Shown here piece after piece: positions 39,320 through 43,634 of a DNA stretch of 47,918 bases. Source of the DNA: a virus. The stretch lies in the IMG/VR virus record IMGVR_UViG_3300045988_031971, positions 1 through 47,918 of that record. One strand, given 5' to 3'. Position 1 is the stretch's first letter, and every line of letters starts with the position of its first letter. The notes below the pieces were generated by a model. It saw only the letters and a program-made list of their open reading frames with translations, ran no database searches and was not told the DNA's origin. The translations under genes were made by a program, and so were the position numbers.

Positions 39320-39571
39320 ATGAGTGCAAGAGTAAAACTTCCAGAACCGTTGGACAAGCTCTTGCGCTCTCAGCTCGAAACAGCCATCCGGGAGTCCGCT
39401 TTGCACAGAGATGATGACTTGATCGCAAGACGATATATCATCGAAAAATGGGCGCAGATAGATATTGCCGCCGAACTGGGCTGGCGTAGATCCACTGTTG
39501 GAGATCACTTGAAATATATCTTAAAGCGAGTGATAGAGGTCTCTGAGCAGCTGTACACAAAACGTACATAA
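39320..39571 (+). CDS. Sigma-70 region-4-like / LuxR-type HTH protein
   Basis: DLIARRYIIEKWAQIDIAAELGWRRSTVGDHLKYILKRV. Confidence 0.45.
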   Translation: MSARVKLPEPLDKLLRSQLETAIRESALHRDDDLIARRYIIEKWAQIDIAAELGWRRSTVGDHLKYILKRVIEVSEQLYTKRT

Positions 39572-39581
39572 AGCGTACAAA

Positions 39582-39618
39582 CCCCCGACTGGGACCGAAC
39601 CCAGCCGGGGAATTTTTA
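39582..39618 (+). terminator. Rho-independent terminator
   Basis: CCCCGACTGGG-ACCGAA-CCCAGCCGGGG followed by AATTTTTA. Confidence 0.65.
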
Positions 39619-39718
39619 TGCGACAATATAGCCATGGAGGACGTGAGGATAAAGGGTTGGTACACGTCGCCGCCCTCCTCACGGACTCCATTATTTTTAT
39701 ACAAAGGACGTGTGATAT

Positions 39719-39880
39719 ATGACTCCAGTGGAAAGGCTGGTGGCCGCCGGTATCCGACCGGACTGTGCCGCTGAGAGTGTGATGTGGTATCAGGCCCAGG
39801 GGGATGATTATGGGCTCCAAAAATATTTGGATGAAGTAGAGGCGAGAAAGGAGGCGCTGGACAATGGCCGGATTTCCTAA
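39719..39880 (+). CDS. Hypothetical small protein (53 aa)
   Basis: ORF MTPVERLVAAGIRPDCAAESVMWYQAQGDDYGLQKYLDEVEARKEALDNGRIS. Confidence 0.4.
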   Translation: MTPVERLVAAGIRPDCAAESVMWYQAQGDDYGLQKYLDEVEARKEALDNGRIS

Positions 39881-40352
39881 CTATACATACCCCGCTTATG
39901 GCGGCTACAACCCCGTAACTCCGTTCGCGCCTGCCCCACAGGTCTACCAGCCTATGCAGCAGCCCGCTCCGCAGCCCGTACAGGCCGCGCAGACGGTTGG
40001 GAGTACAAACACACAACCTAACTTTTTCTGCCGCCCTGTAGCCTCCAGAGAGGAGGCGCTTGGAGTCCCGGTTGACTTTATGGGTGCTCCAATGTTCTTT
40101 CCGGACCTTGCCCATAATGTGGTTTACATGAAACGATTCAATACCAACAGCGGAGCAGCTGATGTATTCGAGTTTAAGCTCGATGTACCTAGAGAAAAAC
40201 AGGAGCATGCCCCTGCGCAGGTCGCAGCCTTTGCGCCACTGGACGAGTTTATAGACATGAAGGACACAGTGCAAAACCTAAAAGACGAGGTGGACAGGCT
40301 GAAAAAGCCCGCTGGAAAGGCAGTGAAAAAGAATGATGCCTCCGATGAATAA
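39864..40352 (+). CDS. Hypothetical protein with a Pro/Gln/Tyr-rich N-terminus
   Basis: MAGFPNYTYPAYGGYNPVTPFAPAPQVYQPMQQPAPQPVQ... Confidence 0.55.
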   Translation: MAGFPNYTYPAYGGYNPVTPFAPAPQVYQPMQQPAPQPVQAAQTVGSTNTQPNFFCRPVASREEALGVPVDFMGAPMFFPDLAHNVVYMKRFNTNSGAADVFEFKLDVPREKQEHAPAQVAAFAPLDEFIDMKDTVQNLKDEVDRLKKPAGKAVKKNDASDE

Positions 40353-40578
40353 TCCCATGATGGCTATGCTCCAGATGGCACGGAACGGCGGAAATCCCAT
40401 GCAAATGCTCCAGCAAATGGCTGGGCAGAATCCGCAGGCCGCCCAGGCTATGCGGCTCATTCAGGGGAAGAATCCCCAGCAGCTTCGGCAGATCGCGGAG
40501 AACATGGCAAAGGAGCGGGGGATCTCTATTGATGATCTTGCCCGGCAGCTTGGTGTAACGATTCCAAGCAACAGATAA
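40333..40578 (+). CDS. Hypothetical Met/Gln/Pro/Asn-rich protein
   Basis: MMPPMNNPMMAMLQMARNGGNPMQMLQQMAGQNPQAAQAM... Confidence 0.5.
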   Translation: MMPPMNNPMMAMLQMARNGGNPMQMLQQMAGQNPQAAQAMRLIQGKNPQQLRQIAENMAKERGISIDDLARQLGVTIPSNR

Positions 40579-40584
40579 TTCCGG

Positions 40585-41241
40585 TTATTTCCTTTTCTTG
40601 AGGACAGCATCCTTAATGGCATCTTCAAAGGACATGCCTTTATGCACCTTTTTATAAACGGAACCAGAAGATATTCCAAGTACAGAACACCACTCTGTAA
40701 TACATCGTGTTTGTCCGTCAATAGTAATAAAACGATTGGTTTTCAAGTTATGTACTTGCTCTAACTGCGTTACCCATCTGCAATTATCTGGAGAATAGCC
40801 CTTTTCCCCATCAATTCGATCAATAGTTAACTTCGGATTTCCGGGATGTGTTTTTTCACACCATTCTATAAATTTATCTGGAGAATATCTCCATTCTTCG
40901 CAGACAGTTATTCCCCTCGCTCCATATTTTAAATATGCAGGTTCGTTTTGATTGTAGCATCTTCTAACCATATCATTCCACTTTTTGTAGAATGGGTGCT
41001 TGCTCAAGCCGTGTGTTTTCCTGTTGTTATCCCAATAATGTTTCCCCCTTTTTCCTTTGGGCAAACAACCGCAGGATTTTACATCCCCACTCGAAAATTG
41101 ATACGGAAAACAAAAAACAGTGTTACCGCAATCGCATAAACATTTTAACTTGACTCTCCCGCCAGTACTAGGTTTTATGTAGCCTACAACGGTTAACTTA
41201 TTGTTCTTTTTGTCAATAAACTCATTAACATCAATTCGCAC
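40585..41241 (-). CDS. HNH-type homing endonuclease
   Basis: IDRIDGEKGYSPDNCRWVTQLEQVHN (HNH_3-type motif) plus a C-terminal HTH-like region. AT-rich relative to its flanks. GTG start. Confidence 0.7.
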   Translation of the reverse strand: MRIDVNEFIDKKNNKLTVVGYIKPSTGGRVKLKCLCDCGNTVFCFPYQFSSGDVKSCGCLPKGKRGKHYWDNNRKTHGLSKHPFYKKWNDMVRRCYNQNEPAYLKYGARGITVCEEWRYSPDKFIEWCEKTHPGNPKLTIDRIDGEKGYSPDNCRWVTQLEQVHNLKTNRFITIDGQTRCITEWCSVLGISSGSVYKKVHKGMSFEDAIKDAVLKKRK

Positions 41242-42116: not shown

Positions 42117-42167
42117 ATTGCATCAAAATCGAGGCAATTAAATTTCCGGCTCTGCCGTGACTACTTC

Positions 42168-42206
42168 GGGGCGGTGGGCTGAGTGTCTGCCGCCCCTGAT
42201 TTTTTG
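42168..42206 (+). terminator. Rho-independent terminator
   Basis: GGGGCGG-N15-CCGCCCC followed by TGATTTTTT. Confidence 0.65.
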
Positions 42207-42219
42207 GAGGTAAACCTAT

Positions 42220-42441
42220 ATGCACACTATTGATGAAGTAAAACAAGAACTCATTGAGCACCTCTATAGCCTAGATAAAACGAAAATGAGTGTTTCAGAG
42301 CTGCGGACTTATGCTGATACCGTTCAGGTGGCCTGCAATATCGCTAAATCAGACAAAGACGATATGTTTTTGGAAATATTCAAGACAATCAATTCTGGTG
42401 CTGGATTCAACCGGGCTGCCGCAACAAAGGAGGATGGCTGA
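42220..42441 (+). CDS. Hypothetical protein
   Basis: RBS GGAGG. No recognisable motif. Confidence 0.5.
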   Translation: MHTIDEVKQELIEHLYSLDKTKMSVSELRTYADTVQVACNIAKSDKDDMFLEIFKTINSGAGFNRAAATKEDG

Positions 42442-42443
42442 CC

Positions 42444-42839
42444 ATGGCATGTAAACCTGTATGCAGACTTTGCGACCGGCTCGTGCTTTCTCAGGCGGTC
42501 GCCTTTACCGGCGGGAACCTGGAGATCAACCTGCCTGCTGGAGCCTACAAAAACGGAGAGAAGTATTGCGTGGTCGTGGCTCAGGCCATCCCCGACACCA
42601 CCACCATCAATGCTCCGGTGTATTTTACCATCGGGACCGGAACCACTCTCTATCCCATGACGAAGCGGAATTGCGCTCAGGTCACCGCCTGCGGCATCCG
42701 TACCCGGACCAAATACTCTTTCTGTGTCGTGACCACCCCCACCGGCGGCTCGTTCCGTATGCTGGGCACTCCCTGCTGCTCCCCCAGCAACAACCTCACC
42801 AGCATTGACGGGGGCGCTGCTCCCGCCCCTACGGCGTAA
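42444..42839 (+). CDS. Hypothetical Cys-rich protein (10 Cys in 131 aa)
   Basis: MACKPVCRLCDR...NCAQVTACG...TPCCSPSNN. RBS AAAGGAGG. Confidence 0.55.
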   Translation: MACKPVCRLCDRLVLSQAVAFTGGNLEINLPAGAYKNGEKYCVVVAQAIPDTTTINAPVYFTIGTGTTLYPMTKRNCAQVTACGIRTRTKYSFCVVTTPTGGSFRMLGTPCCSPSNNLTSIDGGAAPAPTA

Positions 42840-42851
42840 GGAGGGATCAAG

Positions 42852-43634
42852 ATGAAACGATCCACACGGATGATGCTCATGTCCAGTGGCAGCAATCGCC
42901 GCTACAACGACGGACGGAGCTATGATAATTATGATGTCGATGATAAATTCCGTGACCGCCGTGGCCGGGAGCATTATGACAACGGTCGATATGCGCCCCG
43001 TTCTGAGATGATGGAACCGGAGGACCGGGGATATCGTCGATACTCCGATGGCCGTTTTGCTCCCCGTAATGATGGCGGGATGTGGGTAGAGAGTAACTAT
43101 TGGGATGACCGTATGACCGGCCCTCAGTCCCACTACCCATACTATATGCCTCCGGCCTATACTGATAGACGGGAGATGACTAGGCCCATGAATAAGATCG
43201 GATTCGCCATTTCCGGTGAGGGTGAAATGAAGACCCCCAGGGAGTTTGAGCACGACTACCGAATGAACGAAATGGAATACCGGAGAGGTGGAGAGCGAAT
43301 GAGTGGCTATGGAGCCGCTTCCGGGCACATGCCCTTCGACCGCCGTATGGCGGAGGAATGGACTGCCAATATGGAAAATGAGGACGGCACAAAGGGGCCT
43401 CATTGGTCCTTTGAGCAGGCCAAGCAGGTTATGGCCCAGCGCGGGATCGAGTGCGACCCTGCGGAGTTCTGGGCGGCCCTCAACATGATCTACAGCGATT
43501 ATGTCAAGGTCGCCAAAAAGTTCAACGTGGGGAGCAATATCGACTTCTACGTGGACATGGCGAAAGCGTTTCTGGACGACAAGGACGCCGGACCGGACAA
43601 GCTCGCCAAGTATTATCAATACGTCGTGAGATGA
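42852..43634 (+). CDS. Hypothetical protein with an Arg/Tyr/Asp/Asn-rich low-complexity N-terminus and a globular C-terminus
   Basis: NRRYNDGRSYDNYDVDDKFRDRRGREHYDNGRY... RBS TAAGGAGGG. Confidence 0.6.
   Translation: MKRSTRMMLMSSGSNRRYNDGRSYDNYDVDDKFRDRRGREHYDNGRYAPRSEMMEPEDRGYRRYSDGRFAPRNDGGMWVESNYWDDRMTGPQSHYPYYMPPAYTDRREMTRPMNKIGFAISGEGEMKTPREFEHDYRMNEMEYRRGGERMSGYGAASGHMPFDRRMAEEWTANMENEDGTKGPHWSFEQAKQVMAQRGIECDPAEFWAALNMIYSDYVKVAKKFNVGSNIDFYVDMAKAFLDDKDAGPDKLAKYYQYVVR

Follow-up and report, generated by a model that had tools for sequence, protein, structure and literature searches.

The window analysed here is the whole 47,918-nucleotide (nt) stretch of the IMG/VR virus record IMGVR_UViG_3300045988_031971, and between its endolysin gene and the phage attachment site, attP, it carries a run of eight plus-strand open reading frames (ORFs), which we call g1 to g8 (39320-43634). 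It is near certain that the region holds a copy of a mobile, self-contained phage operon with a core of five genes in the order g3-g4-g5-g7-g8, referred to below as the module. An earlier note on the window had taken all eight ORFs for a set of cargo genes. All eight are present, and a Shine–Dalgarno (SD) sequence precedes each of them, as that note had stated; the set itself should be narrowed to the five that form the fixed-order operon.

Synteny and Distribution of the Module

Related module loci, numbered L001, L002, and so on, were collected for comparison by tblastn with g5, which led to gut-metagenome phages sharing the same neighbours; by a scan of one genome per GTDB species, which gave 19 loci; and by a scan of IMG/VR, which gave at least 533 viral contigs, 80 of which were taken for comparison. 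The ORFs of these loci were labelled with iterated hidden Markov models (HMMs), and 62 loci were long enough for the whole module. The order g3-g4-g5-g7-g8 was found in 60 of the 62, at identities down to about 35%, and the module was always co-oriented with its neighbours. A search for co-occurrence, which the earlier note had suggested, returned syntenic homologues in about 100 loci. The exact module proteins of the window are present on 455 to more than 1000 public contigs. The loci from the GTDB scan come from Oscillospirales (Muriventricola, Agathobaculum, Anaerotruncus, Subdoligranulum, Faecousia, and Acutalibacteraceae), from Lachnospiraceae, and from one metagenome-assembled genome of Bacilli.

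Outside the core, a homing endonuclease gene of the HNH type and g6 are regarded as secondary additions in the window because they are absent from most relatives, and g1 and g2 are confined to part of the module family. Other versions of the module are accompanied by a protein of about 126 amino acids (aa) with invariant Cys, His, and Asp (20 of the 62 loci) or by a SprT-like HExxH protein, a Zn-peptidase of about 107 aa (11 of the 62). The name "papain-like" was considered for the first of these and dropped, as it would depend solely on the invariant Cys, His, and Asp residues.

Components of the module are already catalogued as single proteins, under phrog_16490 (g5), phrog_20016, phrog_28802, phrog_3754, phrog_22984, and DUF7841. 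All of these families are annotated as being of unknown function, and all named homologues as "hypothetical"; their linkage into one operon is unrecorded in the libraries and literature searched. There are at least 8000 clusters of g5 at 90% identity, yet every component still bears such a label. A fixed-order operon with a leader, and with a hallmark gene that extends from Clostridia siphophages to crAss-like phages and archaeal viruses, turns what was a pile of ORFans into one experimental target. Cultivable carriers are available in the prophages of Anaerotruncus colihominis DSM 17241, Agathobaculum desmolans ATCC 43058, and Muriventricola aceti, and in the lytic Bacteroides phage C3_41T2LP.

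The Hallmark Membrane Protein

The third core gene, g5 (41355-42116, plus strand, 253 aa), is the hallmark of the module and matches phrog_16490 with an E value of 2e-78; its family accounts for the IMG/VR contigs (at least 533) mentioned above. The protein has one hydrophobic segment (residues 26-42), GGFGGFGGFGGG, a Gly/Phe repeat, CCC, the Pro-rich sequence PVPAYxVPxP, and a C-terminal CGCGC. Across the family, the motifs LQAENQSLK and PVPAYxVP are conserved, followed by a CGC(GC) tail, and residues C134-136, Y147, R165, D166, and C251 are invariant. The hydrophobic segment is confined to g5; g3, g4, g7, and g8 have neither a hydrophobic N-terminus nor a signal peptide.

The earlier note had called for structure prediction of each protein. 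Models were made for g5 and g7 with AlphaFold2 (AF2), and both are poor. The g5 model has a mean predicted local distance difference test (pLDDT) score of 45 and consists of a transmembrane (TM) helix (residues 27-38) and helices at 79-113 and 120-225.

A strong intrinsic terminator follows g5 (42168-42196, plus strand), with a 12-bp stem that includes nine G-C pairs and a T run; in relatives, an equivalent hairpin precedes the SD sequence of g7.

The Leader and Its RNA

The leader gene, g1 (39320-39571, plus strand, 83 aa), encodes a small protein that the earlier note had described as a sigma-region-4-like helix-turn-helix (HTH). Matches to Sigma70_r4 (E 0.069), KorA (E 0.01), TIGR02937 sigma70-ECF (E 0.003), and the sigma factor family phrog_3512 (E 0.001) agree with that description, and all of them are weak. 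A g1-type HTH gene precedes the module in 21 of the 62 loci, and a second small sigma-region-4-like HTH family takes this place in 23. In the window, g1 starts 16 nt past the stop codon of the endolysin gene, and no promoter-like site was found before it; it is therefore probably transcribed with the late genes.

An intrinsic terminator follows g1 at 39583-39617 (plus strand; hairpin at 39583-39610 plus a T run), and the fold energy of 39572-39625 is -24 kcal/mol. In 23 distinct relatives, the sequence of its stem varies, the pairing is kept, and a T run comes after it. Next stands a promoter-like box, TATGCGACAAT (39617-39627, plus strand), which combines a -16 TRTG with an extended -10-like element, is nearly invariant across the 23 distinct g1-type leaders aligned, and has the consensus TRTGnGAnAAT. 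Firmicute sigma-A promoters have a "-16 TRTG + -10" consensus, and on this basis we infer that the box is the module promoter, of the sigma-A extended -10 type. Its predicted transcript would start at the first base of the RNA described below. Loci without g1 carry the other small HTH gene, and in these the terminator, T run, and box are followed directly by g3; a T run with a T(R)TGnGAnAAT / TGnTATAAg box was found 3' of this family's terminator in L002, L010, L014, L021, L058, and L094.

The RNA is RAGATH-31 (Rfam RF03101; 39636-39689, plus strand), a hairpin followed by a U tract, which forms the 5' leader of g2-g4. It scores 83.4 bits against a gathering score of 71.8 (E 4e-16) and covers model positions 1-54 of 54. 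RAGATH-31 also exceeds the Rfam threshold in L001, L005, and L009, and its core motif recurs in 30 loci, without exception on the plus strand and between g1 and g2 or g3. The 23 aligned g1-type leaders share one layout, in which the g1 stop codon is followed by the hairpin, the T run, TATGCGACAAT, about 8 nt, RAGATH-31, the U tract, an invariant AAGGACGTGT, and the start of g2. In the material consulted (Weinberg et al. 2017; PMC5737381), RAGATH-31 appears with neither an assigned function nor an associated gene set. Compared with the RAGATH motifs (RF03101 and RF03097), the RNA here belongs to the module leader and is bound to one place, between the terminator of the small HTH gene and the first ribosome binding site (RBS) of the module. 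An orphan RNA thereby gains a concrete genetic setting and a candidate protein partner.

The apical loop of RAGATH-31, ACACGUC, is complementary to the invariant SD region of g2, AAGGACGUGU (39700-39721). Loop and SD region are both invariant and thus show no covariation. The word GGACGUG is common to the 5' arm of RAGATH-31 and the SD sequence of g1 (AAGGACGUGA, 39304-39319). Together, the loop/SD complementarity and the shared word suggest a leader that controls translation or termination.

The small gene g2 (39719-39880, plus strand, 53 aa) occurs only with g1-type leaders. Homologues were found in 28 loci, its cluster at 90% identity has 189 members, and searches of the families gave it no match.

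Other structured RNAs lie near modules, namely RAGATH-21 in L002, L058, and L066, and type II hammerhead ribozymes in L014 and L019. The hammerheads are found a few kilobases (kb) downstream of the module in Lachnospiraceae-type prophages (L014 12265-12336; L019 11136-11204 and 12453-12521, minus strand).

Core Genes g3 and g4 and the Inserted Genes

The first core gene, g3 (39864-40352, plus strand, 162 aa), encodes a protein with a Pro/Gln/Tyr-rich N-terminus (residues 1-52: P 21%, Q 15%, Y 10%), a conserved central domain of about 65 aa, a predicted coiled coil, and a Lys-rich acidic tail. The g3 HMM matched 101 ORFs, each immediately upstream of g4. A weak match to phrog_21718 (E 0.004) was obtained, and no relative in Pfam or the PDB.

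The second core gene, g4 (40333-40578, plus strand, 81 aa), encodes a helical protein rich in Met, Gln, Asn, and Pro (M 15%, Q 15%). Its family gave 70 matches, and an alternative family at the same position, g4b, gave 29. A weak match to Rad23 covers what we take to be the STI1-like part of that protein. In Bacteroidales phages, g5 homologues (L109 4598-5497; L111 4725-5642) have an extra N-terminal segment rich in Met, Gln, and Asn, for example GMMAMLAPLLQQKGIDPNLLVAM. This segment is possibly g4 fused to g5, and its resemblance to g4 hints at a physical cooperation of the two proteins.

Features that the earlier note had overlooked include the minus-strand HNH endonuclease gene, RAGATH-31, the DUF7841 domain of g8, and the nature of g6 as a lineage-specific insert. 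The HNH homing endonuclease (40585-41241, minus strand, 218 aa; phrog_374, E 9e-62) is encoded between g4 and g5, with a promoter-like site for its gene at 41286-41258 on the minus strand. This gene is absent at the g4|g5 junction in L001, L005, L009, and most relatives, which marks it as a secondary homing-endonuclease insertion and not as a part of the module. Unrelated endonuclease genes occupy the same junction in other versions (L004 6085-6636, L101 at about 5787, and L111 4006-4626), and in Bacteroides phage C3_41T2LP an I-HmuI-like gene stands shortly before the g5 homologue; the junction seems to be a repeated target of homing.

A GC-rich palindromic hairpin with A/T arms (41300-41329, plus strand) lies upstream of g5 and is followed by an AT-rich box and the SD sequence. 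Most loci have a comparable hairpin of differing sequence between g4 and g5, then a TTTGTAAATAAA-like box just before the SD sequence of g5. The mean fold energy of regions upstream of g5 is only slightly lower than that of shuffled sequences (-11.6 versus -9.4 kcal/mol), and the hairpin at 41300-41329 has no Rfam match; it may be an attenuator, a processing site, or a weak bidirectional terminator. The AT-rich box was rejected as a -10 element, being too close to the SD sequence.

Between g5 and g7 lies g6 (42220-42441, plus strand, 73 aa). This lineage-specific insert was found in only four of the related loci scanned, is absent from the 87%-identical relative L009, and belongs to a cluster of 36 members.

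Exchangeable Positions g7 and g8

The fourth core gene, g7 (42444-42839, plus strand, 131 aa), is present in the window as allele A. The protein has an N-terminal CxxxCxxC, Cys42, Cys77, and a C-terminal CC; C3, C7, C10, C42, and C112 are invariant. The earlier note had counted 10 Cys in this protein, and the correct number is 9. The family comprises 2672 clusters at 90% identity and 343 representatives at 50%, nearly all of which are stand-alone proteins of 120-165 aa. The AF2 model of g7 is all-beta, with eight strands (pLDDT 51), and a Foldseek search with this low-confidence model gave no match below E 0.4. In other loci, allele A is replaced by allele B, an unrelated family of about 140 aa (phrog_20016), and hhalign found no homology between the two.

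The fifth core gene, g8 (42852-43634, plus strand, 260 aa), is likewise present as allele A. Residues 1-148 are disordered and rich in Arg (16%), Tyr (9%), and Asp (9%), and residues 149-256 form a DUF7841 domain (PF25223; E 5e-35, 120.6 bits against a gathering threshold of 25.2). Allele B of g8 (phrog_28802), a helical protein with a centre rich in R, Y, G, S, and D, replaces allele A in 13 of the first 27 loci. Both g8 alleles have short GR[YF][AS]P[RK]-like motifs in their disordered regions. All four combinations of the g7 and g8 alleles occur, and the locus counts by g4/g7/g8 type are 21, 18, 8, 8, and 4. The biased compositions reported in the earlier note are borne out by residue counts for g3, g4, g5, and g8.

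A terminator-like hairpin closes the module (43638-43664, plus strand; fold energy of 43630-43700, -23.9 kcal/mol) and is followed by a weak U tract. The earlier note had given every gene its own terminator. Three clear ones are present, after g1, g5, and g8, and they are joined by two terminator-like hairpins, RAGATH-31 with its U tract and the hairpin at 41300-41329; one terminator per gene was not seen.

Genomic Contexts and attP

Upstream of the module, the window has the order p111, two holin-like proteins, CHAP endolysin, and g1. The protein that we call p111 (37638-37973) is a coiled-coil protein with a C-terminal TM segment, and the two proteins after it are strongly hydrophobic. An endolysin gene upstream and attP downstream had been placed correctly in the earlier note. 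The endolysin is of the CHAP type (38609-39304), and attP is attested by a 3' fragment of tRNA-Ala, a tyrosine integrase gene, and a full tRNA in integrated relatives. The label "XhlA-like" was considered for p111 and dropped after Pfam XhlA gave no match.

The attP region (43667-43880) has the tRNA-Ala 3' fragment at about 43771-43823 (minus strand), with 91-98% matches to the 3' ends of tRNA-Ala and to phage ends; ARAGORN detected no intact tRNA anywhere in the window. The fragment is flanked by two 23-nt direct repeats, TTCTGCAATAGATTAG[C/T]AATAG (43667-43689 and 43858-43880), which are probably the arm-type sites of the integrase in attP. The tyrosine integrase gene follows at 43882-45036 on the minus strand. 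In the integrated relatives L005 and L012, the full tRNA comes right after g8.

An integrase gene lies at most 3.5 kb downstream of the module in 27 of the 62 loci, which puts the module at the end of the late/lysis operon. The position between endolysin and attP, which the earlier note had called classic for lysogenic conversion, is thus common and is not defining, as other contexts exist. The module directly follows a same-strand integrase gene in L022, L048, and L106; stands at a prophage edge beside host genes in L005 and L013; lies between minor capsid and scaffold genes in Dulem virus 35 and in the L058 type; and is found between major capsid and connector genes in L055. Homologues of p111 directly precede the module in head-cluster versions (L002 4961-5410; L055 5386-5697). 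The module adjoins holin/endolysin genes in the window, in Suoliviridae, and in many Clostridia phages; it does not where it lies in head clusters or on the integrase side, nor does the g5 homologue in C3_41T2LP.

What is left of a decayed module, fragments of g5 and g8, lies beside ruvCAB in Anaerotruncus colihominis JM4-15 (L025 8022-9105). The same chromosomal site in strain DSM 17241 (L012) holds an intact prophage end and a tRNA.

Homologues in crAss-Like Phages, a Bacteroides Phage, and Archaeal Viruses

The DUF7841 domain of g8 matches 17 crAss-like phage records. In the Suoliviridae phage cr125_1, the gene order runs from an endolysin gene, through further genes, to a holin, an LysB/FtsL-like protein, a 201-aa protein with DUF7841 and an R/Y/D/E/H-rich tail, and a g5 homologue. 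Three pieces of this homologue match the HMM of Clostridia-phage g5 with E values of 2.5e-10, 1.4e-9, and 2e-6, and it has the hallmarks GGWWWIWIILLFFCWGGNGFGFGG, SCCCD, PCPVPAY, and a C-terminal GCNC. A tblastn search with it returned 47 phage records, among them many Crassvirales, the Bacteroides phage and the two archaeal viruses described next, and the same Clostridia phages that had been found with the g5 of the window. Depositors annotate crAss g5 homologues as "spike protein" or "viral fiber", which is a remote-homology guess. Several genes of cr125_1 have in-frame stop codons under code 11, so that stop-codon recoding is likely.

The cultured Bacteroides uniformis phage C3_41T2LP also has a g5 homologue (HMM E 2.6e-35), with a C-terminus ending in GEGCGCGC. 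It adjoins RecT/YqaJ recombination genes and is followed by genes for a beta-rich protein ending in KCCGIFRLMG, a protein with beta and coiled-coil parts, a 77-aa R/D/Y-rich protein, and a PolyVal metallopeptidase; these genes resemble the module in size and composition. Further g5 homologues are present in two Methanomassiliicoccales viruses, one of them annotated as phrog_16490 by its depositors.

Comparison with Known Systems

The earlier note had recognized no described system in these genes, and neither did our searches of Pfam, NCBIfam, PHROGs, PADLOC, PDB sequences, and the literature, the last of which turned up no account of such an operon. Scans of all window proteins against Pfam, NCBIfam, PHROGs, and PADLOC returned only DUF7841, HNH, integrase, and weak HTH matches; no PADLOC model matched any of the nine proteins tested at E ≤ 0.1; and the PDB, searched by sequence with individual proteins as well as with profiles (g3, g5, allele B of g7 and of g8, and the Cys-His-Asp protein), gave nothing below E 0.01. 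Lysis families, including holins, spanins, and antiholins, gave no Pfam, PHROG, or NCBIfam match for g1-g8, and virion structural families gave no PHROG or Pfam match for the module components. This is in keeping with the remark in the earlier note that nothing beyond the first gene resembles virion, lysis, or regulatory proteins: what stands beside attP is an accessory set, neither virion nor canonical lysis, with a regulator at its head. We rate the module as lying outside the known kinds of system. Any function assigned to it is a prediction from sequence, with two structure models that are both poor.

The closest parallels are phage morons, a concept reportedly due to Hendrix and co-workers. 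Morons and lysogenic-conversion cassettes include lom and bor of phage lambda and gp15 of HK97. Like these, the module is an inserted accessory element that brings its own promoter-like box and terminators, takes variable places in the late operon or on the att side, and includes a membrane protein. It is insulated from the late genes, as a moron should be, by a covarying terminator stem, a conserved -10-like box of presumed promoter activity, and terminal hairpins. It differs in having five obligatorily linked genes, a dedicated HTH gene, and a structured RNA leader, and its family spans archaeal viruses as well as phages of different phyla; that lysogens express it is a prediction. Nor is its distribution that of temperate phages only, as members are found in crAss-like phages and in a plaque-isolated Bacteroides phage (the comparison being one of phage types, not of integrase content).

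Accessory lysis genes, such as those of the Rz/Rz1 spanins and of XhlA in Bacillus subtilis PBSX, offer another comparison. A TM helix at the N-terminus, the long helical stretch after it, conserved cysteines, and Pro-rich sequence towards the C-terminus give g5 the outline of an i-spanin/o-spanin pair, and the module has holin and endolysin genes beside it in crAss-like as well as in Clostridia phages. It differs in that there is no sequence match and no lipoprotein partner, and the partners of g5 have no signal peptides. Spanins are, moreover, not needed in single-membrane cells, and most module hosts found here are single-membrane.

Exosporium and spore-coat proteins (the C-terminal domain of BclA, PF18573; the Cys-rich ExsY/CotY; the Tyr-rich CotG/CotC; and the tiny membrane proteins of the YjcZ type) share with the module their composition, vicinal Cys, disorder rich in Gly, Tyr, Arg, and Gln, and the absence of signal peptides, and g7 allele B has a sub-threshold similarity to BclA_C. 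The module differs in that the window proteins fall outside these families, the hosts are partly non-sporulating, and promoter motifs of the mother cell were not found at the sites inspected.

Proposed Function and Its Alternatives

We tentatively propose that the module encodes a g5-anchored complex that acts at the host membrane late in infection and is linked to lysis or egress, a reading that we hold to be possible rather than probable. As judged from the conserved sequences, the HTH gene g1 would be read with the upstream late and lysis genes and stop at its own terminator, and transcription of the module would start at the extended -10-type box right after it. The transcript would open with the RAGATH-31 hairpin, whose loop could pair with the RBS of g2, and the hairpins after g4 and g5 would split it into g2-g4, g5, and g6-g8. 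Since only g5 has a TM helix and its partners lack signal peptides, g5 is proposed as an anchor on the cytoplasmic face of the membrane, where it would hold a long, helical, Cys-bearing stalk. This stalk may recruit g3 and g8 as disordered scaffolds, g4 as a Met/Gln-rich partner, and g7 as an exchangeable beta-rich subunit. In view of partners without export signals, metal binding or redox sensing would be a likelier role for the vicinal cysteines than coat-type disulfides. The envelopes of the hosts are unrelated, and therefore the shared target is probably the cytoplasmic membrane. A link with lysis is favoured because the adjacency to holin/endolysin genes recurs in two unrelated phage orders and because the HTH gene is in line with the late genes. 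Four features of this scheme are predicted: the promoter, the role of the leader, the way g5 lies in the membrane, and the formation of a complex.

Several observations weigh against a role in lysis. A terminator with its own promoter-like box is classic moron architecture and fits expression in lysogens better than lysis. The g5 homologue of C3_41T2LP lies beside recombination genes, homology of its neighbours to g3, g7, or g8/DUF7841 could not be demonstrated, and the module follows the integrase gene in several Lachnospiraceae-type prophages. No protein of the set matches a holin, spanin, antiholin, or other lysis family, and p111, too, has no match to Pfam XhlA. The topology of g5 depends on one Arg after the TM helix, and the models of g7 and g5 (pLDDT 51 and 45) are of low confidence.

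The module could instead be a moron expressed from the prophage, transcribed by sigma-A in lysogens, with a membrane complex that protects the lysogen, for example by blocking the entry of superinfecting DNA, or alters its envelope. We consider this rather unlikely, although every leader type preserves the succession of terminator, promoter-like box, genes, and terminator; in many loci the module flanks attP or the integrase gene, on one side or the other, and in L005 and L013 it borders on host genes at the prophage edge; and the set includes a single-pass membrane protein. Its patchy, accessory distribution and its insertion into late operons are also those of HK97- and lambda-type morons; yet crAss-like phages have the g5 + g8 pair and a Bacteroides phage that forms plaques has g5, and such phages do not as a rule live as lysogens. 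Known superinfection-exclusion systems consist, to our knowledge, of one or two proteins, against five here with disordered scaffolds, and PADLOC gave no match. The HTH gene, moreover, stands ahead of the predicted promoter without a visible promoter of its own and in line with the late genes. An improbable alternative is that the proteins are carried in the virion or ejected from it, so that the hydrophobic segment of g5 enters the target membrane at DNA delivery and metallopeptidases of the SprT or PolyVal type are co-delivered. The window's virion gene set is complete without the module, and the module has its own promoter-like box and terminators and moves independently of the structural modules across capsid and tail types; these points count for more with us than its location inside head-gene clusters (L002, L055, and L058) and among structural genes in crAss-like phages, or the depositors' "spike protein" and "viral fiber" labels. 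The TNF-like trimeric fold of the BclA_C domain also serves in fibre knobs, and g7 allele B resembles this domain, but members of the g7 family are not fused to fibre or collagen-like regions; a metallopeptidase accompanies some versions of the module, but no component has a structural annotation in PHROGs.

The likeness to spore coat or exosporium proteins that the earlier note had drawn would make the module cargo that is placed from the mother cell onto the forespore, where it builds or modifies a cross-linked coat or exosporium of the lysogen. A composition rich in Cys, Tyr, Gly, Arg, and Gln and the lack of signal peptides match coat proteins, all bacterial genome matches to the module are in Bacillota, and one host contig has spoVAC, spoIVB, and spo0A beside the prophage. 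However, g5 is present in Crassvirales, in the B. uniformis phage, and in the Methanomassiliicoccales viruses, and the pair of g5 and DUF7841 in Crassvirales; their hosts do not sporulate, and at family level neither g5 nor this pair can therefore be spore-coat cargo. The window proteins have no match at E ≤ 0.1 in Pfam or NCBIfam to CotY/Z, GerQ, CotJ, YjcZ, DUF3992, or BclA_C; the one weak hint is that 9 of 30 allele-B proteins of g7 match Pfam BclA_C, with a best E value of 5e-7 and 30 bits, below the 38-bit threshold. The conserved box is sigma-A-like, unlike those of sigma-E or sigma-K, and no sigma-E/sigma-K motifs (CATAnnnTA, CATACAnT) were seen upstream of g2, g5, and g7. We give this reading very little credence and conclude that the module is not a spore-coat or exosporium kit; coat-like amino acid composition should be treated as poor evidence of a spore function, which is a warning for annotation practice. 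Still less credible, to the point of being negligible, is the view that there is no system here, only unrelated ORFans and low-complexity frames at a variable prophage end. It is true that most of the proteins belong to no assigned family, that g2 and g6 are short and unevenly distributed, and that low complexity may create spurious ORFs, but the fixed order in 60 of 62 loci, the conserved cysteines, motifs, and regulatory elements, and the thousands of homologues for each core gene refute it. A more far-reaching idea, which we think doubtful, is that of an undescribed membrane machine of the whole gut virome. Its Cys-rich complex (CCC and CGCGC of g5; CxxxCxxC of g7) would be a metal binder or a sensor of redox state or oxygen and would pass this signal on to lysis timing or phage exclusion, with the RAGATH-31 leader and the sigma-like HTH as the switch. 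The hosts spanned (Clostridia, Bacteroidota, and methanogenic archaea) are all strict anaerobes with unrelated envelopes.

Other Features of the Window

The head-gene region of the window contains three consecutive Rfam RNAs: skipping-rope (20092-20188), gut-2 (20369-20415), and GP20-b (20494-20553). In L002, L058, and L066, the whole module sits in the corresponding head-gene region, beside RAGATH-21, tRNAs, and GP20-b.

Past the integrase gene, the window encodes a Bro-N domain protein (45117-45941, minus strand; E 1e-10), and further minus-strand ORFs are found at 46303-47226 and 47249-47767.

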